Origin: a virus
Virus record (IMG/VR): IMGVR_UViG_3300045988_165974
Location: 32,001-96,000 of that record
Length of the DNA stretch: 64,000 bases
Direction: 5' to 3' (one strand)
Part shown: one piece after another, positions 10,194 to 62,548 of the stretch
Layout of the letters: each line of letters starts with the position of its first letter
How positions within the stretch are numbered: the first letter of the stretch is position 1
Made by a program: the position numbers and the translations under genes
The notes under the pieces: generated by a model
The model's input: the letters and a program-made list of their open reading frames with translations, nothing else
Databases searched by the model: none
What the model was told of the DNA's origin: nothing

Positions 10194-10330
10194 TGGAAAC
10201 AGTTGGATTTGAACCAACACCCTCTTCTTGACCTATAAGATTTAATTTCTTCTTTTAAATATATTGCTGTATGTGTCCCATAATCCCACTAGACACATAA
10301 TTATTTGTGCTACCATTACACCATGTTTCC
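10194..10330 (-). ncRNA. tRNA-like gene with about 64 extra nt between D arm and T arm
   Basis: Acceptor GGAAACA/TGTTTCC, D arm GTGT-AATGGTA-GCAC and T arm GTTGG-TTCAAAT-CCAAC are intact. The middle holds the hairpin ATGTGTC..GGACACAT plus ACAGCAAT. No standard anticodon arm is present. Confidence 0.6.
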
Positions 10331-14114: not shown

Positions 14115-14425
14115 AAACAGATATTCCTTTCATTAAATTAAATTAATAACTCAGCTACACAAGTAACTGTTATGCGTACTATACTGTACTGTTACCATAC
14201 AGTTGTTTCGACTTCAACTCGACAATGATATAAAGGCTTTTTACATATACATTACAAGGCTGTTCTTACTCTGACCTAACTTAAATGTATACGATAGAGC
14301 AATGGTCTGTTGCGTCAACCAAAGGTATCATGACTTAAATATCGTAGCCATCATTTCTGTGGCTTAGTCTGGTGAACCATTTAACAGAAGCCCATAAGCT
14401 TTAGCTTGTGGGTAGTTCACTTAAT
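14115..14425 (-). ncRNA. putative IscB omega-RNA scaffold
   Basis: About 300 nt directly 5' of iscB, locally GC-richer and ORF-free. It has several helices, e.g. GTGAAC..GTTCAC and CCCACAAGCT-AA-AGCTTATGGG. The position matches published IscB omega-RNAs. Confidence 0.65.
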
Positions 14426-14818: not shown

Positions 14819-14936
14819 TGCCGAAGAATAGATTTGAACTATTATCCTATAGCTTCCCTGTTTGAAATTGCTGCTTATGTATTTATCAATACATCTATTT
14901 ATTGGCTATTGCTCCAACCATTTGAGCTACTTCGGC
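14819..14936 (-). ncRNA. tRNA-like gene with a 51-nt anticodon loop
   Basis: Perfect acceptor GCCGAAG/CTTCGGC, D arm GCTC/GAGC, anticodon stem ATAGC/GCTAT and T arm AATAG-TTCAAAT-CTATT. The loop holds hairpin ATGTATT-GATA-AATACAT plus AAGCAGCAAT. Confidence 0.65.
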
Positions 14937-29441: not shown

Positions 29442-29470
29442 TTGACAATATAAAGTATATAAGCTACAAT
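29442..29470 (+). promoter_or_regulatory. early promoter 1
   Basis: TTGACA, a 17-nt spacer, then TACAAT. An AAAACTTTT-rich UP-like tract lies upstream. Confidence 0.6.
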
Positions 29471-29542: not shown

Positions 29543-29571
29543 TTGACAGAGGATTAAAAAAGTACTATACT
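29543..29571 (+). promoter_or_regulatory. early promoter 2
   Basis: TTGACA, a 17-nt spacer, then TATACT, with the same UP-like tract upstream. Confidence 0.6.
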
Positions 29572-29637: not shown

Positions 29638-29667
29638 TTGACTTATTCAACTACTATACTTTATAAT
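29638..29667 (+). promoter_or_regulatory. early promoter 3
   Basis: TTGACT, a 17/18-nt spacer, then TATAAT. Confidence 0.5.
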
Positions 29668-30914: not shown

Positions 30915-31256
30915 ATGATGTTAAAAGAAAAATTAAACGAAATGAAAGCTAATTCAGAAGGAATAAAACTATTTGTAATTGACGATATTTTAAAATTCAA
31001 CGAAAGTGATGACGATATAAAAGCATATATTAACGATGCATTAACTTATGGTTGTTCTAGTGGTTGTGTATCTTGTTTAATCTACTATGTAGATACTCAA
31101 AAATTCTTTGATAAATATCAAGACGAAATTCTTGAAATGCTTGAAAATGCTAAAGTTGAATATGGAATAACTTTCGAAATTAATTCAAATAATCTAGCAT
31201 GGTTTGGCTATGAAGAGACTTTACGAAACATAGCAACTGAATTAGGTATTTGGTAA
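30915..31256 (+). CDS. small acidic hypothetical protein
   Basis: AAAGGGGA RBS, ATGATG start. Confidence 0.55.
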   Translation: MMLKEKLNEMKANSEGIKLFVIDDILKFNESDDDIKAYINDALTYGCSSGCVSCLIYYVDTQKFFDKYQDEILEMLENAKVEYGITFEINSNNLAWFGYEETLRNIATELGIW

Positions 31257-31374: not shown

Positions 31375-31929
31375 ATGATGAAAAATTTAGTAAATTTAAA
31401 CGAGTTTGAATTGAATAGGGATAATGTAAAAGCTATACTTGAAAATAATTCAGAGTTTAGAAATAGCCTTGAAAGTGATTATTTTGATAGTGAAGTTTAT
31501 TATTATACAACTGAGTTATTAGACAGAATAGATGGCATAAACTGGAGAATAGATTTTGGTTCAGTTGAAATTTGGAAAGGTTTTAGCTCAAATATACTTG
31601 ATATTGTAAAAAGCATATTAGATATTGATTATTTCTTTATAAATGATACGGATATTCTTTTACAAAAATTAGAAGTTTTCTATAATGCTTTATACACTTG
31701 TCCACAGTATGGTAATCGTTTCGATAGACTAGAAGGAAGAACAGAGCAACTTTTAGAAATATTATTTACTAAAATAGAAGATAGCATTAAATCAAGTTTA
31801 GATTACATGGATGATATTGATAATCTTACAGACTGGTATATTGATTCAGGCTATGATGAAAGTTTAACTTGGAGTGGAATGTATATCAATCCAAAGACTT
31901 TCGAATTGTACGAGTTAAAACATTTATAG
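31375..31929 (+). CDS. acidic hypothetical protein
   Basis: 184 aa. RBS AAAGGGGA, ATGATG start. Confidence 0.55.
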   Translation: MMKNLVNLNEFELNRDNVKAILENNSEFRNSLESDYFDSEVYYYTTELLDRIDGINWRIDFGSVEIWKGFSSNILDIVKSILDIDYFFINDTDILLQKLEVFYNALYTCPQYGNRFDRLEGRTEQLLEILFTKIEDSIKSSLDYMDDIDNLTDWYIDSGYDESLTWSGMYINPKTFELYELKHL

Positions 31930-33416: not shown

Positions 33417-33445
33417 TTGACATTTTTACACAAAAATGATACTAT
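33417..33445 (+). promoter_or_regulatory. internal promoter of the early operon
   Basis: TTGACA, a 17-nt spacer, then TACTAT. Confidence 0.6.
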
Positions 33446-33448
33446 TAA

Positions 33449-33551
33449 ATCAAGAGGAGTAATCCCCTGGTTCTTAATGCAGTAGCTAATAGCTAGAGGT
33501 CGCAACTCCTCATAAAACATATGCAGAGCGAGAAAATGAAAGGGGATAAAG
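33449..33551 (+). promoter_or_regulatory. structured 5' leader (riboswitch-like?)
   Basis: GAGGAGT...ACTCCTC and GAGG..CCTC are competing helices. TCCCCT is complementary to the downstream SD AGGGGA. See the finding. Confidence 0.4.
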
Positions 33552-33998
33552 ATGATGAAAATAAAAGAATTATATGAAAACATTAGTAACTGTTTAGATT
33601 GGATTAAAATCAATAATAGTGATTTAAAAGACATATTTGAAGGTGCTAAGGCATTAAGAAGAGGAATTCAAGTCCTAGAATATGACAAAGAAATGATAGG
33701 CAAAATTGATGATAACTATTTTATTTCAAATTTTATTATGGATATTTTAGAAAAAAATCTTCCAGAGTACCAATTAAGTTTAGACATGATTGATGACATT
33801 TTAGAAGAACTAGATATAGATGATGATACTTTAGAAGAATTAGATGAAAGCGAATTTGAAAATCATGTTATAATCAAAAATACTTTCGTAGATGTAAAAG
33901 AGTCAATTTCTTTTGATGATTACTGGGATGGATTAGACTTTGATAGTCTTTTAAAAAGATTTGAGTTTGCAAAAGAGGAAATTGGTTACTTATTATAA
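33552..33998 (+). CDS. very acidic hypothetical protein
   Basis: 148 aa, rich in D/E. Confidence 0.55.
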   Translation: MMKIKELYENISNCLDWIKINNSDLKDIFEGAKALRRGIQVLEYDKEMIGKIDDNYFISNFIMDILEKNLPEYQLSLDMIDDILEELDIDDDTLEELDESEFENHVIIKNTFVDVKESISFDDYWDGLDFDSLLKRFEFAKEEIGYLL

Positions 33999-34090
33999 GT
34001 TTAAATTCGAAACAGGGAATACAGGAAATCCTGTATTGCTTGTCTATAAGTAACAGGCTGCTTGTACTGATGATGATAGCCTAAGCTTAT
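33995..34090 (+). ncRNA. type II hammerhead ribozyme candidate (B3)
   Basis: Stem II ATAAGTTTA/TAAGCTTAT, a 14-bp stem III, stem I TATAAG/CTTGTA, CTGATGA+T. Predicted cut at 34044/34045. Confidence 0.7.
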
Positions 34091-34115
34091 AAATATAACG
34101 ATAAAAGGGGATAAA

Positions 34116-34373
34116 ATGATGAACAATTTAAAATGGCAAAAACTTATAAGTAATTTGGATACAGAAGAAGGTAGACAAGAGTTTATAAAAATTGCTTCTT
34201 CTGGAATGTATTCAGGTGAAAATATTGATGGTGAAAAAGTCATAACCATTGTTTCTCAGGGAGTGGGAATGATAGTAAAAACTAAACATCACGAAAAGCC
34301 AAACTGGTGGGAATGTGTTGATTATGACGAACTTGGCTGCATGGAGTGTGTAACATACGAAAGAGCCGAATAA
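34116..34373 (+). CDS. small hypothetical protein
   Basis: RBS AAAGGGGA, ATGATG start. Confidence 0.5.
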   Translation: MMNNLKWQKLISNLDTEEGRQEFIKIASSGMYSGENIDGEKVITIVSQGVGMIVKTKHHEKPNWWECVDYDELGCMECVTYERAE

Positions 34374-34376
34374 ATT

Positions 34377-34468
34377 GAAGGATAAATTCGAAACAAGTGA
34401 TACGGGTTTTCTGTATTACTTGTCTATAAGGTTAAGCTACTTATACTGACGAGATAGCTTAATCCTTC
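34377..34468 (+). ncRNA. type II hammerhead ribozyme candidate (B4)
   Basis: Stem II GAAGGAT/ATCCTTC, stem I TATAAG/CTTATA. The pseudoknot covaries here to TAAGCT/AGCTTA. Predicted cut at 34424/34425. Confidence 0.75.
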
Positions 34469-34491
34469 TAAAATGAAAGGGGATAAAAAAG

Positions 34492-35019
34492 ATGATGAAA
34501 AAAGAAAACATTGAAAGATTTTTAAAGTTATTAAATTCAGAAGAAATAAGCGATAAAATAAAAGATATGTATCTTGACTTACTAGAGAGTCATATAGATG
34601 ATGACCTTGGAGTCAAAATAGAAATCATATTAAGCCTAGATGGAGAAGTAGATAACAGATTTTTTACAGGTAATTCAACTAGAATGGACGTATATGAAGG
34701 CAACTCAATTGTTGTGGCAGCCATCAGACATGATGTAAATATTACTGATGAAATGATGGGAGAAATAGTCGATGTATTAAGTAATGATGTATATGAAGAA
34801 TTTGTTCAATATCTTTATGGATTAGACGATATTCCAGAAGAAGAGCAAGAAGAATATCTTGAAGAAAATCTTACTTGGGATAATTTCTATGACTTTGATT
34901 CTATAATATATGGAGAAATTCAGAGAGAAGCTTGGGAAAACAATGTTGACTACTATGGAAATGAAGAAATTGACCAAAAGCTTTATGAATGTATTCAACA
35001 ATTAGAAAATCTTTTATAG
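34492..35019 (+). CDS. very acidic hypothetical protein
   Basis: 175 aa, rich in D/E. Confidence 0.55.
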   Translation: MMKKENIERFLKLLNSEEISDKIKDMYLDLLESHIDDDLGVKIEIILSLDGEVDNRFFTGNSTRMDVYEGNSIVVAAIRHDVNITDEMMGEIVDVLSNDVYEEFVQYLYGLDDIPEEEQEEYLEENLTWDNFYDFDSIIYGEIQREAWENNVDYYGNEEIDQKLYECIQQLENLL

Positions 35020-35034
35020 GAGCAGCAATGCTCC

Positions 35035-35095
35035 ACTCTAAACTCACTTGGCACATGTCAAAAGGTCCAAAGTCCTTGAAAAGAGTGATGGGAGT
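35035..35095 (+). ncRNA. twister ribozyme candidate (C2)
   Basis: Preceded by hairpin GGAGCA-GCAA-TGCTCC. P1 ACTC/GAGT, P2 ACTC/GAGT, P3 TGGC-ACAT-GTCA, P4 AAGG/CCTT with loop TCCAAAGT. Predicted cut at 35039/35040. Confidence 0.7.
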
Positions 35096-35156
35096 AAAGG
35101 CGAAGTTACCAAAATGCTCGTCTAAATATAATGGTAACAATAAAAAGGGGGTAAAT

Positions 35157-35471
35157 ATGAAGGTATATTTAGGAAATGCATTTAGTTTGCAAATGATAAG
35201 TACAACAAAGGATACAGACATAAGAGTTTCACCAGTTGATGTTCAAACTGTAAAAGATAGTGATTTTATATCAATTGTAGGTCATCAAGATACTGCATCT
35301 GTAGTTGGAAACATCTTAGGAAAAGATGTACCTTGCAATCGAGTTTCTGTTAGTTTGAGTAAAGGAGATATTTTATATGTAGCACAAATTGTTGGTGGCA
35401 GACTTCCTGTGGGAGCTACTTGTTTACCAAACGGCTTTAAATTAACATTCTTGAAAGTAACTATCTTGTAA
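35157..35471 (+). CDS. DUF1874 / AcrIII-1-family ring nuclease (cyclic tetra-adenylate degrading anti-CRISPR)
   Basis: MKVYLGNAFSLQMI...IVGHQDTA...NRVSVSLSKGDILYVAQ...GRLPVG parallels SIRV1 gp29 as I remember it (KVYLANAFSINML...SIGHDST...NRVEIKLEKEDKLYVVQ...RLEEG). ATG at 35157 follows AAAGGGGG. Confidence 0.8.
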   Translation: MKVYLGNAFSLQMISTTKDTDIRVSPVDVQTVKDSDFISIVGHQDTASVVGNILGKDVPCNRVSVSLSKGDILYVAQIVGGRLPVGATCLPNGFKLTFLKVTIL

Positions 35472-35537
35472 ATAATATGAGGTTTGGGAGTCCTTTTAAA
35501 ACTCCCCCTAAATATGAAAATGAAGGGAGAAATAAAA

Positions 35538-35675
35538 ATGGAAGAAAAAAGAGAAATGACAATAGAAGAAGAATTTGAAAAACATATGAAGACTATGGAA
35601 GGACATGTATGCTACGGTTGTAGTGGTTGTAAATTTGCTTTCTATGGAGTTTGTCCATATGCTTTAGAGGGGTAA
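35538..35675 (+). CDS. small Cys-rich peptide (45 aa)
   Basis: ATG after AAGGGAGA. Contains CYGCSGC...C. Confidence 0.4.
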   Translation: MEEKREMTIEEEFEKHMKTMEGHVCYGCSGCKFAFYGVCPYALEG

Positions 35676-35683
35676 AACCTCTC

Positions 35684-35746
35684 TTGCTTTAAACTAGCCA
35701 CCAGAAGGTGAGAGTCCAAAGCCTCTGTGAATAGTGATGGGAGTAA
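35684..35746 (+). ncRNA. twister ribozyme candidate (C3)
   Basis: P1 TTGCTT/GAGTAA (with G.U pairs), P2 ACTA/TAGT, P3 CACC-AGAA-GGTG, P4 AGAG/CTCT with loop TCCAAAGC. Predicted cut at 35690/35691. Confidence 0.7.
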
Positions 35747-35766
35747 ATAAAAGGGGGTAAACGATA

Positions 35767-35967
35767 ATGATGAAGAATGAAAATAATTTTGAAAGGATAA
35801 TATGTGATAGCTTATGGGACATAAAACAGAATTATCCAAATATTGAATTGTCTAAACATCTATTCTATATAGACACCTTTGAAAGATTAGGATATGGCAA
35901 AAAAGGAATAGAAATAACTTTAAATAACAATGATAAGTATATTATTACTAAAGTTGAAAATGATTAA
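35767..35967 (+). CDS. small hypothetical protein
   Basis: RBS AAGGGGG, ATGATG start. Confidence 0.5.
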   Translation: MMKNENNFERIICDSLWDIKQNYPNIELSKHLFYIDTFERLGYGKKGIEITLNNNDKYIITKVEND

Positions 35968-36063: not shown

Positions 36064-36205
36064 TATAAAAGGTTAGATAAAATGCTATCAAGAACTCATG
36101 AAAGTGAGTGTTGAATATATTATCATTTTTTGGGAGAGGGTTGCCCTCTCCTATCCCCAATATAGTAGATAAATGATAGTGATATCATTAAATATATATT
36201 ATGTA

Positions 36206-36236
36206 ATCTCTCCAATTGAGAGGTTATTTTTTTTTA
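36206..36236 (+). terminator. intrinsic terminator of the early operon
   Basis: CTCTC-CAATT-GAGAG followed by T10. Confidence 0.7.
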
Positions 36237-36631: not shown

Positions 36632-36667
36632 CAGAGCCCTCATTAGGGGGTTCTTAGGAGGTATAAT

Positions 36668-36958
36668 ATGAACAATATTTCTTTAGTGCAGCTTAGAAAA
36701 GATTATGATTATCTAAATAGCAAAATTTCTTATCATGTGTTAAATGAAGACGAATTATTAAATGAAGTTGTTCCTAAAATGTTGAGTGGGAAAATGGATT
36801 TAAAAAACTTTATTCTGTGGGCAATAAAAGATACGATAAAATATGTAGTAGAAGACAGAGAGGCAATGAACACAAAAGAAGACATTGAATTTATTGAATC
36901 AGATAAAAGATTTAAAAGGATTCTTGACAGATACGATATTGATATAGAGGAGGTTTAA
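36668..36958 (+). CDS. hypothetical protein (paralogue of the next gene)
   Basis: LRKDYDYLN...LKNFILWAIKD...SDKRFKRILDRY aligns with the following ORF. Confidence 0.5.
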   Translation: MNNISLVQLRKDYDYLNSKISYHVLNEDELLNEVVPKMLSGKMDLKNFILWAIKDTIKYVVEDREAMNTKEDIEFIESDKRFKRILDRYDIDIEEV

Positions 36959-36959
36959 T

Positions 36960-37280
36960 ATGAATATAGAGCAACAATTAAAAGGATTAGAAATAAAACA
37001 ATCTACAACTACTCTAAGAGCAGATTTTGAATATTTAGATGATAATATCAATTGGTATCTAATTGATGAAGCAATATTAGTAACAGAAATTGCTCCAGGA
37101 TTGCAATATGGAACATTAAATCTAAAACAATTTTTGCTTTGGAGCATCTGGGACATTATTGCTTTTGTTATTATAGAAAATCATGACGAAGATGATGTTA
37201 ATTTTGTTAAAACAGACAGTAGGGTTAAAAGAATCATAAGAAAATATGGTTTAAAAGAAAGCATAGAAGAATTAATATAG
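36960..37280 (+). CDS. hypothetical protein (tandem paralogue)
   Basis: LRADFEYLD...LKQFLLWSIWD...TDSRVKRIIRKY. Confidence 0.5.
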   Translation: MNIEQQLKGLEIKQSTTTLRADFEYLDDNINWYLIDEAILVTEIAPGLQYGTLNLKQFLLWSIWDIIAFVIIENHDEDDVNFVKTDSRVKRIIRKYGLKESIEELI

Positions 37281-37291
37281 GAGGAGTAGAT

Positions 37292-37579
37292 ATGAAATAT
37301 AGAATATGGTGGATACCGCAAGTAGGATATGAAGGTACTTTTTATGTACCTGTAAATTCTCCAGAAGAAGGATTAAAAATGATGTCAGTTTTAGGAGCAT
37401 ATGATTTATTTCAATTAAAGAATAATATTAAACCAGACTTTTCAAATACAGGTGGCTTAGAAGTCTTTGAAAACGGAGAATGGGTAGATTACTATGACGA
37501 AGACGGCAGAGATATAGATGAACATTTTGAAGAAGATGTGGATATGCAAGACTTTATAGAAAAAGTTTATAATTTTTAA
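37292..37579 (+). CDS. hypothetical protein
   Basis: 95-aa ORF with a GGAGGAG RBS. Confidence 0.5.
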   Translation: MKYRIWWIPQVGYEGTFYVPVNSPEEGLKMMSVLGAYDLFQLKNNIKPDFSNTGGLEVFENGEWVDYYDEDGRDIDEHFEEDVDMQDFIEKVYNF

Positions 37580-39759: not shown

Positions 39760-40707
39760 ATGAGTAATTGTTATAAAGAGTTTTTAGGATATATGAAAGA
39801 TGTGCAAGGAGTTGATAATAAAACTCTAGTATGTTACGAAAAAAATTTAAAAGACTTTAACGAGTATATTTTTGGTGGGAAAGCAGATACTACTTTTGAA
39901 GAAATAGCAAACTTAAAAGTATCTGAAATACAAACAAAATGGCTCAATAGACTTAAAGATGAAAAAGGATATAAATCAAATACCTTAAACAACCGCATAA
40001 TTACACTTACAAGACTTTACACATATATGGTAGGAGAAAACTATACTACTGTAAATAAAGGCAAACTAATACCTCATTACAAAGGCGACAAGAAAGTTAA
40101 AAAAGAAATATCAACTGATGATTATATATCTTTATTAGAAGAACTTAGAAAAAATAGAGATAAAAACTTCACTAGTCTTAGAAATTGGTTTATGGTAGAA
40201 TTCTTTTTAGCAACTGGACTTCGTAGAGCGGAAATCATAGCATTAGACATCGAAGATGTAAATATTCTTACTGGTGAAATAAAAGTCACTAGAAAATATG
40301 ACGAAGGTGTTAAATTTGGTAAAGAAAGAATAGAGTATCTTCCAGAAATACTTTTAGATGATTTACACTATTATCTTTCACATAGATTAGACATAGAAAC
40401 AGATAGTGATGCTTTCTTTATTTCTACTCATAAAAAAAGAATGTGCGCATCTAATATCAATAAGCTGCTTAATAAGATAGCAGATAATAACGGCATGAAA
40501 ATACACCCTCATATGCTTAGAGCGGGATTTTCAAGCAATACCATTAATAGTGGTAGGGTAGAATCATATGAAGTCGCAGAAGCGATGGGACACAGTAATA
40601 AGACTACTACTTTGAACTATTATCATAAGTCTAATACAGAAGTATTAAAGAAAGTTGCCAACAGTAATATGATATTTGACAAAAGACAAGATGATAATGT
40701 AATATAA
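39760..40707 (+). CDS. tyrosine recombinase / integrase (XerC/D-like)
   Basis: TGLRRAEIIALDIEDV (Arg I), HPHMLRAGF (H-x-x-R), GHSN (His) and TTLNYYH (Tyr). Confidence 0.85.
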   Translation: MSNCYKEFLGYMKDVQGVDNKTLVCYEKNLKDFNEYIFGGKADTTFEEIANLKVSEIQTKWLNRLKDEKGYKSNTLNNRIITLTRLYTYMVGENYTTVNKGKLIPHYKGDKKVKKEISTDDYISLLEELRKNRDKNFTSLRNWFMVEFFLATGLRRAEIIALDIEDVNILTGEIKVTRKYDEGVKFGKERIEYLPEILLDDLHYYLSHRLDIETDSDAFFISTHKKRMCASNINKLLNKIADNNGMKIHPHMLRAGFSSNTINSGRVESYEVAEAMGHSNKTTTLNYYHKSNTEVLKKVANSNMIFDKRQDDNVI

Positions 40708-46903: not shown

Positions 46904-47090
46904 ACAAGCATTTGTAGGTATGTACCGATGGCTTTAGTCGGGAATTTACGACTGTGGACTGTACAAGAACTTGTGAGTAGTGTATTACTTTGTAATCACA
47001 AAAGCATACAGGATGAAACAGTAAGAAAAGTTTGTGAAAACTTTCAATATCTCGATATGGGTATATTTGTCCATATTTTGAGTGGCAGGA
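46780..47090 (+). ncRNA. putative TnpB omega/reRNA scaffold and right end
   Basis: ORF-free, GC-richer stretch overlapping and following the tnpB 3' end. Hairpin CCGATGGCTTTAGTCGG (46925-46941) and AATTTACGAC..TGGA, also seen after the second tnpB. Ends are uncertain. Confidence 0.45.
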
Positions 47091-51613: not shown

Positions 51614-52579
51614 ATGAATAAATTTTTAAAAGAAATTGAGAAAACAAATAAAATAGCCTTATTAACTTACGGAGGTAGCTATGCATATGGAACAAATGTA
51701 GAGGGCTCTGACATTGATTTAAGGGGCATATTTTTACCATCTAAATTAGAAATACTATCTATGACTTGCTGCGACAAGGCTCTTACGGATAATGAAACAG
51801 ATACTGTTATGTATCCCTTAAAACAAATGATTCAATTATTATGTAATGCAAATCCTAATACAATTGAAATATTAGGGACTAGAGAACAGGATATATTTAA
51901 GATATCTAAAGAGGGACAAATGCTTAAAGATAATGTAGATTTATTTTTAACAAAAGGAAAAGTTCATTCTGCACTCTTAGGATATGCTCAAAATCAATTG
52001 AGAAGATTAAAAAATGCAATAGCTCGAGATGATTTAGAACAGACAGAAAAAGAGAAACATATTTTACAGTCTGTTGAAAAGAGAATGTCTACTTTCGAGC
52101 AATCATATGCTCCAATAACAAACGGAGAATTAAAGCTGCACATAGAAAAATCAAATAAAGAAGATTTAGAAGAGGAAATTATGATAGACATGTGCTTAAA
52201 AAATTATCCATTACGAGACTGTAAAAAAATGTTAGATGAAATGGCAATAACCTTAAAACAATATGGAAAATTAAATCACAGAAATAAAAAGAAAGACGAA
52301 CAACATCTTCTGAAACATTCTATGCACCTTGTGAGACTTTATTTAATGGGAATTGATATATTACAAGGAAATGGAATTAAAACTTACAGAGAGGACGACA
52401 GGGAGTTATTATTAGATATTAGAAATGGCAAATATTCTTATGAACAAATTTATAATATGGCAGAAAAATTAGAAGAAGAATTTAAAGATGCATTACAGAC
52501 AAGCAGCTTACCTGAGAAATTAGATTATGATAAAATAAATAATTTAGTTGCAGAAATAAACAAACAAATATTGAAATAA
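51614..52579 (+). CDS. Pol-beta-fold nucleotidyltransferase, RlaP-like (RNA-ligase-associated family)
   Basis: LLTYGGSYAYGTNVEGSDIDLRGIF is the GS...SD.D signature of the PF10127-type predicted nucleotidyltransferases. Confidence 0.6.
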   Translation: MNKFLKEIEKTNKIALLTYGGSYAYGTNVEGSDIDLRGIFLPSKLEILSMTCCDKALTDNETDTVMYPLKQMIQLLCNANPNTIEILGTREQDIFKISKEGQMLKDNVDLFLTKGKVHSALLGYAQNQLRRLKNAIARDDLEQTEKEKHILQSVEKRMSTFEQSYAPITNGELKLHIEKSNKEDLEEEIMIDMCLKNYPLRDCKKMLDEMAITLKQYGKLNHRNKKKDEQHLLKHSMHLVRLYLMGIDILQGNGIKTYREDDRELLLDIRNGKYSYEQIYNMAEKLEEEFKDALQTSSLPEKLDYDKINNLVAEINKQILK

Positions 52580-52604
52580 AAATATTATTTTTTTAGAAAT
52601 CCAC

Positions 52605-52633
52605 TTGATAGTTTAATATAAAAATGCTATTAT
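52605..52633 (+). promoter_or_regulatory. promoter
   Basis: TTGATA, a 17-nt spacer, then TATTAT. Confidence 0.45.
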
Positions 52634-52658
52634 TTATGTATGTAGAGGGGGTTATAAA

Positions 52659-52916
52659 ATGAGAATGACAAGTAGAAGATTCAATAATATGGTTAAGAAA
52701 GTCATCGAAAGAAAAAAAGATAAATTAAAGGACTACAGAGTTGACGATGTTGCTTTTTATAATGTAAACATCAGAAAACAATATAAAAAAGACGAATATG
52801 AAATTATCGTATCTGTTGATGAAATAGAAGTACCAAATATACTTATTCGTGATATCGTAGAAGAAACAGCAGAAATATTAGGGATTAAGGTATATCGAAT
52901 ATTAGTAGAATTATAA
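52659..52916 (+). CDS. hypothetical protein
   Basis: 85-aa ORF with a GAGGGGG RBS. Confidence 0.45.
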   Translation: MRMTSRRFNNMVKKVIERKKDKLKDYRVDDVAFYNVNIRKQYKKDEYEIIVSVDEIEVPNILIRDIVEETAEILGIKVYRILVEL

Positions 52917-52957
52917 AAGTAAGGAGGAGATTTTCTCCTCTTTATTAAAAAAAGAAG

Positions 52958-52986
52958 TTGACATATTATTATAAAAATGCTAATAT
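52958..52986 (+). promoter_or_regulatory. promoter
   Basis: TTGACA, a 17-nt spacer, then TAATAT. A hairpin AGGAGA-TTT-TCTCCT lies upstream. Confidence 0.55.
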
Positions 52987-53004
52987 ATAAATATACAAGG
53001 GAGG

Positions 53005-53961
53005 TTGAAAATGCTAAAACTTATAACTCATAATGATTTAGATGGAGTTGGGTGTGGGATTATTGCAAGCTACATACTAGGGAATGGAATAGACATAAGT
53101 TATTGCAGTAATCATCAGGTCGATAAAGTTTTTTCAGATACATTATCTAGTGGAGAATATGAAATGATAATTTTAACAGATGTAAGTATCAATAAAGAAA
53201 ATGCAGAAAAAGTTAAAGAATCAGATATGAATGTTCTTTTATTAGACCATCATCCAACTGCACTTTGGTTAAATGAATATCCGTTTGCTAAAGTTCTTAT
53301 AGGAGATACAGATGGAACAAAGACTTGTGGAACTCAATTATTTGCAAGTTTCCTTTATCAATCAATGGAGGAAGATAAAGATTTCCACAAAGGTAGAAAA
53401 ATGTTTGAAATGGTTACAAATAAAGTTCTTTGGAAATTTGTAAAACTAGTAACCTATTGGGACACATGGCAATGGAAAGAAGAAAATATATTAGAAGCAA
53501 AAGAGCTTAATATGTTATTTGACATTTATGGACTTGAAGAATTTTCAAAGTTAATTAAAAAGAAATTTGAAAACTATGAACTATATGGAGACGATTCTAG
53601 TTTCTTTGGAATGGCAGAAAGGCATGTATTAAAATTAAGACAAAGAGAAATAGATGATTTGTTCAAAAAGAAAAACAAATCACTAAAGAAAACTAAATTC
53701 GAAGGTTATAATGTTGGAGTTATATTCTGTGATAGATTTTATTCAGAAATAGGAAATAGAATTTGTGAAGAGAATTCTGACATAGATTTTGTAGTTATGT
53801 TACAAGACCATACTACAAGCCTTAGAGGTATAGATAAAGTTAATTTAGGAGATATCGCCAAAAAATATGGTGGTGGAGGACATAATAATGCCGCAGGATT
53901 CCCAATTGGTGCGGTAAATTTTATAGATGAAATATTGGGTGATATGAATGATTTCTTATAA
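53005..53961 (+). CDS. DHH/DHHA1-family phosphoesterase (NrnA-like)
   Basis: ITHNDLDGVGCG (motif I), TDVS, LLLDHHP (DHH), GGGHNNAAGF (DHHA1). Confidence 0.85.
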   Translation: MKMLKLITHNDLDGVGCGIIASYILGNGIDISYCSNHQVDKVFSDTLSSGEYEMIILTDVSINKENAEKVKESDMNVLLLDHHPTALWLNEYPFAKVLIGDTDGTKTCGTQLFASFLYQSMEEDKDFHKGRKMFEMVTNKVLWKFVKLVTYWDTWQWKEENILEAKELNMLFDIYGLEEFSKLIKKKFENYELYGDDSSFFGMAERHVLKLRQREIDDLFKKKNKSLKKTKFEGYNVGVIFCDRFYSEIGNRICEENSDIDFVVMLQDHTTSLRGIDKVNLGDIAKKYGGGGHNNAAGFPIGAVNFIDEILGDMNDFL

Positions 53962-54514
53962 GGTTGCATTTACTGGACATAGACCAAATGGTTTATATGG
54001 GTATGATATGAATGCCTATAAATATATTGAATTAGAACTTAAAATTGAGCAAATTATCAGATGGTTAATTCAAAAGTATGGTTCTAATGATTTTTATACA
54101 GGTGGAGCTTTAGGATTTGATACACTTGTAGCAAAAATCTTAATAAACTTTAGAAAAAATGAATATCCAAATATTCAAGATTATGTATGTGTTCCTTTTA
54201 AAGAGCAATATAAGGCTTGGAGTAAAGAACAAATAAAAGAATGGTTATATATTGTAAATAATTGTTATAAATCATTTGCAATTGATACAATAGAAGGTTA
54301 TACTTGTAATAAGGCAGAAATTGGAAAATATCATCCATATAAAATGGAATTAAGAAACCAATATATGGTAGATAATTGCGATATTCTTATTGCTTGTTGG
54401 AATGAGGAGAAACATGGAGGAACTTACAACTGTGTTAGATATGCTTTAGAGAATAATAAAAAAGTTTTAGTCATAAACCCTCAAACCTTAAAAACAAATA
54501 AAATTAACTTTTAG
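53948..54514 (+). CDS. SLOG-fold DUF1273 (YpsA/YoqJ-like) protein
   Basis: VAFTGHRP...YTGGALGFDTL...CDILIACWN..KHGGTYN fits the DUF1273 pattern. Confidence 0.65.
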   Translation: MISYKVAFTGHRPNGLYGYDMNAYKYIELELKIEQIIRWLIQKYGSNDFYTGGALGFDTLVAKILINFRKNEYPNIQDYVCVPFKEQYKAWSKEQIKEWLYIVNNCYKSFAIDTIEGYTCNKAEIGKYHPYKMELRNQYMVDNCDILIACWNEEKHGGTYNCVRYALENNKKVLVINPQTLKTNKINF

Positions 54515-59631: not shown

Positions 59632-59806
59632 TATCATTAATAAGATAATGCTAATATGTAGGATGCGTTGTATCCAAATTTACGCCCTTGGAGAGTTATA
59701 TCAAACGAAAGTAGGTTGTTATTTATAATTTCCAAAATCGAATTCGTAGAACAGGGAATTAAACAAGATTTATAGATATTTATAGATTTTTGGCAACGGA
59801 GTAAAT

Positions 59807-60435: not shown

Positions 60436-60999
60436 GTGAGCTTTCGGGTTCGCCTATTTTTTATGGCTAGAACTGTTAAATGTAAATATTGTAATAAAAA
60501 AATTTTAAATACAGAGGCTTTTAAGCAAGAAGTTTCTGTAGGGAGTAAAACTCAAAACTGGTATTTTTGCAATAAAGAAGAGGCAAGACAGTATAGAATA
60601 GATTTAGACACATGGAAAACTATCATGTTTGCACTTGATGTCTTAGCAAAAGACAAAATAGCACATAGCAGTAAAGCAAAGAAAATGAATGATATTTTGA
60701 ATCAAGGTTACACAAAAACAGATATATATTGTTGTTTAGTTGAAATGGTTAATGATATTTATCTTGAAAGTAAAATGAAGTATGACATAGAGACACCTTA
60801 TCAAAAATTGTGTTATCTTAGTGCAGTAATAGAAAACAACATAGCTAGGATTCACAAAGATAATACTAGAGCAGATATGGAGCAGCAATATACTCCAACT
60901 GTAGAAGTTTTTAAAGAGCAAACAAAGGTAAAAAATAATAGAAGAAAAACATTGAGGGATAAAATAAATGAAAAACTTCAAGATAATAACAAAGAATAG
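60436..60999 (+). CDS. hypothetical protein (N-terminal CxxC)
   Basis: Track ORF with a GTG start. An alternative ATG at 60463 follows a terminator-like hairpin, so the start is ambiguous. Confidence 0.45.
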   Translation: MSFRVRLFFMARTVKCKYCNKKILNTEAFKQEVSVGSKTQNWYFCNKEEARQYRIDLDTWKTIMFALDVLAKDKIAHSSKAKKMNDILNQGYTKTDIYCCLVEMVNDIYLESKMKYDIETPYQKLCYLSAVIENNIARIHKDNTRADMEQQYTPTVEVFKEQTKVKNNRRKTLRDKINEKLQDNNKE

Positions 61000-62548
61000 A
61001 AAACAAATAGAATCTCTTGTCTTAGGAGGTTTCTTAAGCAACTTAGATTTTTATGGAACTTACAATAAAATAAGTGACAAAGATTTTAGAATTGAAGAAA
61101 TTAAATTCTTTTTTAACATAGCAAAAACTATCAGTAAAAAATATAAAGAATTAGATGAATTTAGCATCATGGAATTAATTTCAGGGAACAAAGAATCTAA
61201 GATTAAATATGAAAAATATGGTGGTTGGGATGCAATAGAAGAATATATAGATAACTCAAATCCAAACAATATAGATGCATATATAGATAATTTAGCAAAA
61301 AATAATTATTTATTATATTTAGATGAAAAAGGCATTGATTTAGTTGAAGAAATTGAAATAGAGGGAACTATGATTTCTCCTTTAGATTTATTTTCTACAT
61401 GGACTTGTGCAGAAGTTGGAGCTTTTTACGAAGGAATAGTTGCAAAAGGAGAAGTTCAATCTATTAATAAAAAATACAAAAGAGAAAGTCTTCTGTTTAG
61501 TGATGAAGAAATAATAAACTTGCAAGATAAAGTCGAAGCAGGAACTCCATACAATGTCATATTTGAATATACAGACAAAGAAATCGGGATGGGAGATTCA
61601 GAAGAGCCAAGATATATTTATGGACTTCCTCTTACTTCTAATAAAACATCAGGAATGGGCAAAGGTGGAGGAGTTTCTTTTATAGCTGGTTATTCAGGTA
61701 TAGGGAAATCAACTTTAACTTTCATTGATATTATTCTACCGCTTATCTATCAAGGAGAGAAAATAGTTATGTTCTCCAATGAACAAGGCTCTTTATATTT
61801 TAAGACTATCTTATATTCATTTGTAGCTTATAATGTATTTGGATATAAAAACCTAAGAAGAAGTGACATTGTTAATGGAGAATTTGATGCCGAAAGTCTT
61901 GAAATTATGAAAAAAGTTAAAAAATTCCTTCAAGATAGAGAATATGACGAACTATTGACTTTTTATGAGTTAGAAGACTTTGACATTAGTGAAATTCTAA
62001 AAGTAGCAACAAGTTTAGTAACTCATGAAGGATATACTGGAATACTGGTAGATACTTTCAAAAGTGAAGATATGGCAGATGCACAATATGTTGGAAAAAT
62101 ATTAGAAAATGCGAAACAAATAGATAAATTTGGAAATAAATATAAAATATTAACTTTTTTAACTATGCAATTAACTCCCGCTACTACTGATAAAAACGCT
62201 TATTTGACCGTAGGAGAGCTTTCTGAATGTAAGGCAATAGTTACTGTGGCAGATTTATTATTTCTCGTTAGAAGGGTAATAAACGACTTAGAACTAGATG
62301 AAAAAAATAAAAAATATTATTTAAATCCATATAGGCTTAAATACAACGAAGCAACAGAAGAATATGAAAGAGAATATATACAATTTGATGAAGAAGATTT
62401 AAAGAAAGACTATAGACTTGTATTTCTTACAAAATCACGAAGAGGGGGAGATGGAATGATTATTTTATTAAGATTCAATGGGACAACAGGCTGGTTTAAA
62501 GAAATTGGCTATGTTAGTCATGTATATAGAGGGCCACTTAGTTATTGA
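60968..62548 (+). CDS. DnaB-like replicative helicase
   Basis: Walker A GYSGIGKSTL, Walker B GILVDTF, RecA-like C-terminal half. It overlaps the primase start. Confidence 0.75.
   Translation: MKNFKIITKNRKQIESLVLGGFLSNLDFYGTYNKISDKDFRIEEIKFFFNIAKTISKKYKELDEFSIMELISGNKESKIKYEKYGGWDAIEEYIDNSNPNNIDAYIDNLAKNNYLLYLDEKGIDLVEEIEIEGTMISPLDLFSTWTCAEVGAFYEGIVAKGEVQSINKKYKRESLLFSDEEIINLQDKVEAGTPYNVIFEYTDKEIGMGDSEEPRYIYGLPLTSNKTSGMGKGGGVSFIAGYSGIGKSTLTFIDIILPLIYQGEKIVMFSNEQGSLYFKTILYSFVAYNVFGYKNLRRSDIVNGEFDAESLEIMKKVKKFLQDREYDELLTFYELEDFDISEILKVATSLVTHEGYTGILVDTFKSEDMADAQYVGKILENAKQIDKFGNKYKILTFLTMQLTPATTDKNAYLTVGELSECKAIVTVADLLFLVRRVINDLELDEKNKKYYLNPYRLKYNEATEEYEREYIQFDEEDLKKDYRLVFLTKSRRGGDGMIILLRFNGTTGWFKEIGYVSHVYRGPLSY

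Follow-up and report, generated by a model that had tools for sequence, protein, structure and literature searches.

The founding AcrIII-1 protein is gp29 (ORF114) of the archaeal rudivirus SIRV1, with solved structures of the apo form (2x4i) and of the H47A variant in complex with cyclic tetra-adenylate (cA4) (6scf). In this protein, H47 acts as the general acid, the closed dimer is locked by R85, a residue of the loop, and the side chains of N8, S11, N13, S49, T50, R66, and Q81 contact cA4 (10.1101/778746). Members of DUF1874 occur both as viral anti-CRISPR (Acr) proteins and as cellular Crn2 (10.1101/778746, 10.1101/2024.09.24.614671). AcrIII-1 is already known from tailed phages (10.1101/778746), and in a survey of 28,114 cultured phage genomes, it was present in 36 (10.1101/2024.09.24.614671). 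With the protein of Thermoanaerobacterium phage THSA-485A (Tsac_2833, DUF1874), type III immunity was lost where it depended on cA4 but not where it depended on cA6 (Athukoralage et al., 10.1101/778746). The SIRV2 homolog gp37 had no anti-CRISPR action in native infection and appeared to serve another role; its failure was ascribed to middle/late expression, and it interacts with a host methyltransferase, a partner restricted to Crenarchaeota (Martinez-Alvarez et al. 2023, 10.1101/2023.01.10.523387). With regard to genome organization, the closest parallels are the ribozyme-punctuated operons of gut Caudoviricetes, with twister, hammerhead, or HDV-like "theta" elements, in which, as at the locus studied here, self-cleaving candidates lie between small genes. 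The ribozymes dealt with in that work (Kienbeck et al. 2024, PMC10879173), however, are HDV-like elements beside tRNAs, in a setting of recoding.

The window analyzed here is a stretch of 64,000 nt, bases 32001-96000 of a complete virus record of 138,243 bp with direct terminal repeats. The record is a gut phage genome with a G+C content of ca. 28%, in which the coding strand switches at ca. 28 to 29.5 kb of the window, within a region of 21.8% GC. The AcrIII-1-like gene belongs to the small-gene operon that runs rightward from this switch, and the features of the operon that bear on it are given below in window positions.

29442-29470, 29543-29571, and 29638-29667 (+): three tandem near-consensus sigma-70-like promoters heading the rightward small-gene operon; each agrees with the consensus at 11 of 12 hexamer positions.
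33417-33445 (+): internal promoter-like site (TTGACA-17-TACTAT; extended -10 TG); no other such site lies closer upstream of the gene.
34492-35019 (+): upstream ORF of 175 aa, very acidic (pI 4.05; 26% D+E), which keeps its place beside the ring-nuclease gene in close relatives.
35020-35033 (+): cap hairpin (GAGCAGCAAUGCUC) directly 3' of the upstream stop codon, present in the MFE fold and similar in loci L017, L018, and L019.
35035-35095 (+): twister-P1-like candidate (Rfam RF03160, 45.4 bits, E 1.7e-7; model R1, 73 bits).
35097-35138 (+): 5' leader, made up of AAGGCGAAG and a hairpin (35105-35110/35133-35138), with a candidate pseudoknot GGCGA/UCGUC.
35145-35151 (+): Shine-Dalgarno sequence AAGGGGG, 5 nt before the ATG at 35157, at a site kept in homologous loci.
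35157-35471 (+): acrIII-1-like gene, coding for a 104-aa DUF1874 ring nuclease homolog with predicted catalytic H43 and lid R82.
35486-35506 (+): hairpin GGGAGU-loop-ACUCCC, 3' of the stop codon of the gene.
35538-35675 (+): Cys-rich mini-ORF of 45 aa (CYGCSGC...VCPYA), which in locus L014 lies upstream of the twister and the acr gene.
35686-35744 (+): second twister-P1-like candidate (Rfam, 44.8 bits, E 2.6e-7; model R1, 70.5 bits).
36203-36227 (+): hairpin resembling an intrinsic terminator, with a T8 run behind it, where the transcription unit probably ends.

The gene is a 104-codon ORF ending in TAA. Its start was assigned to the ATG at 35157, and not to 34989, on the grounds of the start and size shared by its homologs, the Shine-Dalgarno sequence, and the overlap of the longer frame with RNA elements. 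The 160-aa frame opening at 34989 was ruled out as a gene, since it would traverse the twister and the leader and its extension is absent from the homologs, which, across 84 homolog clusters in a large protein collection, are ca. 96 to 108 aa long and begin with the common M-x-x-Y-L-G-N-A-F-S. An ORF on the opposite strand (34901-35221) was likewise discarded, being without support and running against the composition skew of the strand. Besides these 84 clusters, the family gave 134 matches in IMG/VR and ten in species-representative genomes, the closest of the latter being Saccharibacteria metagenome-assembled genomes (MAGs) with 52 to 59% identity. These closest cellular relatives are held by loci L004-L008, which are Saccharibacteria/Nanosyncoccus MAG contigs from tiny CPR genomes.

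An earlier note on this DNA had read the product as a DUF1874/AcrIII-1 ring nuclease on the basis of a series of motifs, and had proposed a PF08960 profile search and a superposition on SIRV1 gp29 as checks. The motif series is there as described, with KVYLGNAFS at residues 2-10, GHQDTA at 42-47, NRVSVSLSKGDILYVAQ at 61-77, and RLPVG at 82-86. The Pfam profile PF08960 (STIV_B116-like, formerly DUF1874) matched the protein with 39.7 bits (E 5.7e-10; gathering score, 26) over profile positions 1-79 of 101, and when the whole genome was searched with the same profile, a single copy was recovered (38.8 bits). The protein also matched phrog_5063 (E 6.5e-18), while NCBIfam held no model for it. A sequence search of the PDB with phmmer returned only four entries, all solved members of the family: 2x4i, which is SIRV1 gp29 (2.4e-9); 2j6b, AFV3-109 (8.3e-8); 6scf, the gp29-H47A/cA4 complex (1.1e-7); and 2j85, STIV B116 (1.8e-5).

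An AlphaFold2 model built on 38 relatives (mean pLDDT, 95.8; pTM, 0.87) gave the same picture. When it was compared with the PDB by Foldseek, the best 17 matches were all AcrIII-1 or Csx1-Crn2 structures (6scf, 2x4i, 2j6b, 2j85, and 8y7f/g), and beyond these the match probability fell to 0.03 or less. The superposition on the SIRV1 gp29 structures gave TM-scores of 0.74 to 0.77 (0.76 for the cA4 complex 6scf), and the predicted structure has the characteristic AcrIII-1 fold. The ring-nuclease fold is also shared with Csx1-Crn2 of Marinitoga (8y7f/8y7g) and with cellular DUF1874 proteins (Foldseek E, 6e-4 to 2e-3; TM-score, 0.71 to 0.74), although identity to Crn2 is only ca. 14%. With the significant PF08960 match, the predicted fold, and the retention of the catalytic His and of the cA4-contacting residues detailed below, the identity proposed in the earlier note holds, and we regard it as virtually certain that the 104-aa protein is a bona fide DUF1874/AcrIII-1 family member. 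That it adds a further viral ring nuclease to an already described family is well supported.

At the level of the active site, pairwise and multiple alignments placed gp29 N8, S11, N13, H47, S49, T50, R66, Q81, and R85 at N7, S10, Q12, H43, D45, T46, R62, Q77, and R82 of the phage protein, respectively. Although it belongs to the same Pfam family as gp29, from an archaeal rudivirus, the phage protein is only ca. 33% identical to it overall; seven of the nine positions are nevertheless identical (H43, N7, S10, T46, R62, Q77, and R82), the two substitutions being N13 to Q and S49 to D. The lid also differs: in gp29, a longer loop is followed by a helix (82-94), whereas here, according to both the alignment and the predicted structure, the lid (GGRLPxG) is ca. 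6 residues shorter and without the helix. Both substitutions and the short lid are common to this protein and the active THSA-485A protein. The latter is the best match that the deposited phages offer (E 3e-23), with 49.5% identity across 97% of the length. The two proteins are alike in their length of ca. 102 to 104 aa, in the GGRLPxG lid, in all nine listed cA4-contact positions, including the catalytic His, and in being encoded by a stand-alone gene, in the case of THSA-485A in a tailed phage of a Firmicute, even though half of their residues differ.

Conservation across the family follows the same positions. Among the 38 aligned relatives, G6, N7, A8, F9, S10, M13, G42, D45, A47, N61, R62, and G86 were invariant, and H43, T46, and R82 were conserved in at least 90%. 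Pairwise dN/dS values among nine phage copies ranged from 0.16 to 0.42, indicating purifying selection. In one relative with 62% identity (cluster P0012), the catalytic His is replaced by Tyr (GYADTA). Judged from its sequence, the protein is very probably an active cA4 ring nuclease. As to the kind of ring nuclease, Crn2 is defined by its linkage or fusion to type III effectors, while the gene described here is a virus gene, and no cas families were found by Pfam or PHROG among the neighboring small phage ORFs. Being stand-alone, virus-encoded, and unlinked to a type III locus, it is a viral AcrIII-1 rather than a cellular Crn2.

By analogy with SIRV1 gp29, the protein would form a small homodimer burying cA4 at the dimer interface, with His43 as the general acid and the Arg82 loop closing over the ligand, and cA4 would be cut, independently of metal, into two linear A2>P halves. 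In this way, the second messenger that Cas10 of type III systems synthesizes would be removed, leaving the cA4-activated effectors (Csx1, Can1/2, Cam1, and the like) off, and replication of the phage would then become possible in a host with matching spacers. The gene would be transcribed by the host RNA polymerase within the long rightward small-gene operon; the candidate twister upstream would sever its message from the preceding RNA, and the hairpin leader and the strong Shine-Dalgarno sequence would then drive translation. Taken as a whole, the proposal that the gene encodes a functional AcrIII-1-type ring nuclease used against type III CRISPR is a probable one. With respect to the natural host in particular, we lean, with some reserve, toward an action as an anti-CRISPR.

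The timing of expression is relevant here, because the failure of SIRV2 gp37 was attributed to its middle/late expression. The sigma-70-like promoters and the position of the gene close to the strand switch suggest early expression by the host polymerase, a reading made from promoter-like sequences in a scan that, as a whole, was not enriched over shuffles. At the internal promoter-like site (33417-33445), a repeated promoter-like block was also recovered as a repeat family (D10).

These considerations bear directly on the alternative that the DUF1874 protein is able to cut cA4 in vitro but benefits the phage through some other activity, such as the binding and inhibition of a host protein, and is no anti-CRISPR in its native setting. 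The gp37 of SIRV2, with no native Acr activity and a separate methyltransferase interaction (Martinez-Alvarez et al. 2023), is the precedent, and it is joined by the close relatives in Saccharibacteria genomes without a Cas10 match, a negative result obtained in three MAGs carrying relatives with 52 to 59% identity (L004, L005, and L007), all of them incomplete. However, the failure of gp37 was attributed to its timing, whereas the gene here sits in an apparently early operon driven by the host polymerase, and the methyltransferase partner of gp37 is confined to Crenarchaeota. Moreover, cA4 contacts that are conserved throughout the clade under purifying selection are hard to explain unless the handling of the ligand matters. 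On balance, we consider this alternative unlikely.

It is more improbable still that the ligand bound or degraded by the protein is another oligonucleotide signal, cyclic or linear (e.g., CBASS-like or SAVED/CARF-based), or that the protein serves mainly as a sponge. The two contact positions that depart from SIRV1 gp29, together with the shorter lid, leave some room for such a change of ligand, and the Tyr-for-His replacement in P0012 indicates that the family explores other chemistries, but the His is kept in our protein, and its nine positions match those of the THSA-485A protein, which is specific for cA4- over cA6-dependent immunity. Finally, a role in lysogeny, with a Crn2-like damping of the host's own cA4 signaling from a prophage or phage-plasmid that spares the lysogen, is very hard to credit in spite of the tyrosine integrase 4 kb downstream (39760-40707), the affinity of the helicase to that of 130-kb Clostridioides phiCD211-type phages, and the dual viral (Acr) and cellular (Crn2) roles of DUF1874, given that the gene is not near the regulatory genes of the integrase module, that it lies in a multigene operon whose strong promoters are of the kind seen in early lytic genes, and that the type III locus linkage that defines Crn2 is absent here.

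An anti-CRISPR of the AcrIII-1 type presupposes a suitable host. A megablast search of the 30- to 40-kb region against phages gave no match. The helicase at 60968-62548 is 52% identical to its phiCD211-type counterpart, and an IS607/TnpB element at ca. 57.8 to 59.8 kb shows 75 to 80% DNA identity to plasmid copies of Clostridium botulinum, C. sporogenes, and C. tetani; on the grounds of these two affinities, a clostridial host is likely. Type III systems exist in Clostridia, those described in PMC10600005 signaling with SAM-AMP and not with cA4. Among the five cellular genomes with relatives that were considered, which include the three Saccharibacteria MAGs without a Cas10 match, an Aquificales MAG carries a full Csm1. 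It is a reasonable inference that the host may have a type III CRISPR system or some other cA4-dependent defense. The presence of the gene indicates that this large gut phage probably encounters cA4-signaling type III CRISPR, and it points to the ribozyme-punctuated operon around it as a likely counter-defense region.

The earlier note had also placed the gene inside a ribozyme array, and this location stands: twister-P1-like matches flank it at 35035-35095 and 35686-35744, both covering the full length of the RF03160 model but scoring below its gathering score of 67.2, for which reason we refer to them as twister-like candidates. Downstream of the first one, the parts of the leader follow in the order AAGGCGAAG, a covarying 6-bp hairpin with CUCGUCUA in its loop, the Shine-Dalgarno sequence, and the ATG. 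Over nine instances, the leader hairpin showed compensatory changes in five of its six pairs, with 97% of the cells paired, and its covariation score was reached by none of 500 shuffles. The candidate H-type pseudoknot GGCGA/UCGUC was invariant, so that covariation is uninformative in its case. The leader had no match to any Rfam family, and its motif occurs once in the window. In IMG/VR, where the leader pattern gave 77 matches, mostly by chance in GC-rich contigs, the motif also precedes unrelated small ORFs of other gut phages, namely in L023 (4522-4584), L112 (1120), L117, L127, L156, and L169. A regulatory RNA specific to acr was ruled out, since the same motif stands before at least five unrelated ORFs.

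In order to follow the association of twister and gene, the covariance model R1, built from 11 twister copies, was run over 93 sources, including 80 IMG/VR and 10 genome loci. R1 twisters were detected only beside copies of the gene with at least 67% identity (the window, L017, L177, L014, and L018-L022), which represent seven distinct loci. In all seven, the twister lies 60 to 120 nt upstream of the gene, and in most of them the covarying leader hairpin is present as well. In L018-L022, the sole twister match within 10 kb is the one by the gene. The more distant loci gave no R1 twister, and an Rfam scan of the five Saccharibacteria loci (L004-L008) found no ribozyme of any family near the gene. 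Since the twisters are confined to copies at least 67% identical, the ribozyme link is a property of a subclade and not of the family; a family-wide DUF1874-ribozyme link was unsupported in the loci searched. The THSA-485A gene stands among ordinary ORFs without annotated ribozymes, whereas here the gene stands behind a twister and a structured leader. No description of a twister that is specifically and conservedly paired with a gene for an anti-CRISPR was found in the literature, a search in which PMC10879173 was covered in part.

The boundaries of homology were determined by blastn of the 33.0- to 37.5-kb region against the relatives. In the syntenic loci L017, L177, and L178, the block at 34.1 to 35.8 kb was only 77 to 78% identical, compared with 93 to 97% for the flanks (33417-34121 and 36663-37280), a difference that could reflect either local replacement or faster evolution. 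The block (34101-35770) comprises the acr gene together with the acidic ORF before it and the Cys-rich ORF after it. Contigs L018, L019, and L021 are otherwise unrelated to the window; in these, homology starts at 35095-35097, the first bases past the twister, and stops with the ORF, at 35464-35465. The homologous stretches on the side of the relatives are L018:4940-5308, L019:4938-5309, and L014:5718-6305. In L014, two blocks, 35517-35750 (Cys-rich ORF and twister) and 35031-35464 (twister, leader, and gene), are joined via one shared twister.

From the boundaries in L018, L019, and L021, the fusion in L014, the leader before unrelated ORFs, and the acr block of 77% identity, we tentatively propose, on what is a small sample, that the ring-nuclease gene of this subclade may be a leader-plus-ORF cassette of ca. 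370 nt that docks behind twisters, the ribozymes being both mRNA-processing signals and recombination joints. We consider this possibility doubtful. As part of the same tentative proposal, the processing might give each small anti-defense gene its own stable, 5'-OH-capped message. If true, such cassettes, exchanged between unrelated phages, would correspond to integron-like gene cassettes, with ribozymes as their boundaries. If the pairing does reflect cassette exchange, it would also point to a biological function behind the clustering, so far unexplained, of self-cleaving ribozymes in the genomes of phages. The conserved twister-leader-acr pairing and the cassette-like homology boundaries are the only aspects of the locus that go beyond routine annotation.

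With regard to the neighboring genes, the order of the acidic ORF (34492-35019) followed by the ring nuclease is common to L177, L178, and L017. The product of this ORF has only four homolog clusters, and neither Pfam, PHROG, nor a PDB fold search gave a match (E < 1; model pLDDT, 77.8). It was consequently rejected as a recognizable DNA mimic or known anti-defense fold. The four neighbors that the earlier note had put forward as candidates for further anti-defense proteins (30915-31256, 31375-31929, 33552-33998, and 34492-35019) are acidic, with pI values of 4.05 to 4.25, and the support for that reading is circumstantial. The first of them, of 113 aa, belongs to DUF7222 (71 bits), of which no mention was found in the literature searched, while the other three were without a Pfam family, and any PHROG that they matched was of unknown function. 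The 45-aa Cys-rich mini-ORF had no family match in Pfam or PHROG either. Further downstream, the 95-aa ORF at 37292-37579 falls into the GP17 family PF17420, "superinfection exclusion gene product 17" (E 3.5e-19), and into the PHROG "superinfection exclusion" family (phrog_1510), which makes it the second gene of the region whose family name relates to defense. The family of this last ORF gives mild support to the view that the region around the gene may serve host takeover or counter-defense.

In other parts of the window, an RlaP-type nucleotidyltransferase, a stand-alone DHH/DHHA1 phosphoesterase (53005-53961), and a YpsA/SLOG protein are adjacent at 51614-54514. DHH-family NrN enzymes degrade SAM-AMP, a type III signal; the phosphoesterase gave only weak generic DHH/RecJ matches and is not put forward here as an NrN-like SAM-AMP phosphodiesterase. 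Two RAGATH-18 RNAs (46951-47024 and 59685-59758) were found, as well as a HEARO RNA (14207-14420) beside a 420-aa ORF. Together with the IS607/TnpB element, these RNAs and the 420-aa ORF indicate that the phage probably holds several RNA-guided transposon nucleases. Lastly, two Rfam tRNA matches on the minus strand, at 10194-10330 and 14819-14936, span 137 and 118 nt, respectively, and were not called by ARAGORN; these may represent genes of the phage's tRNA cluster that are interrupted, by an intron or in some other way.
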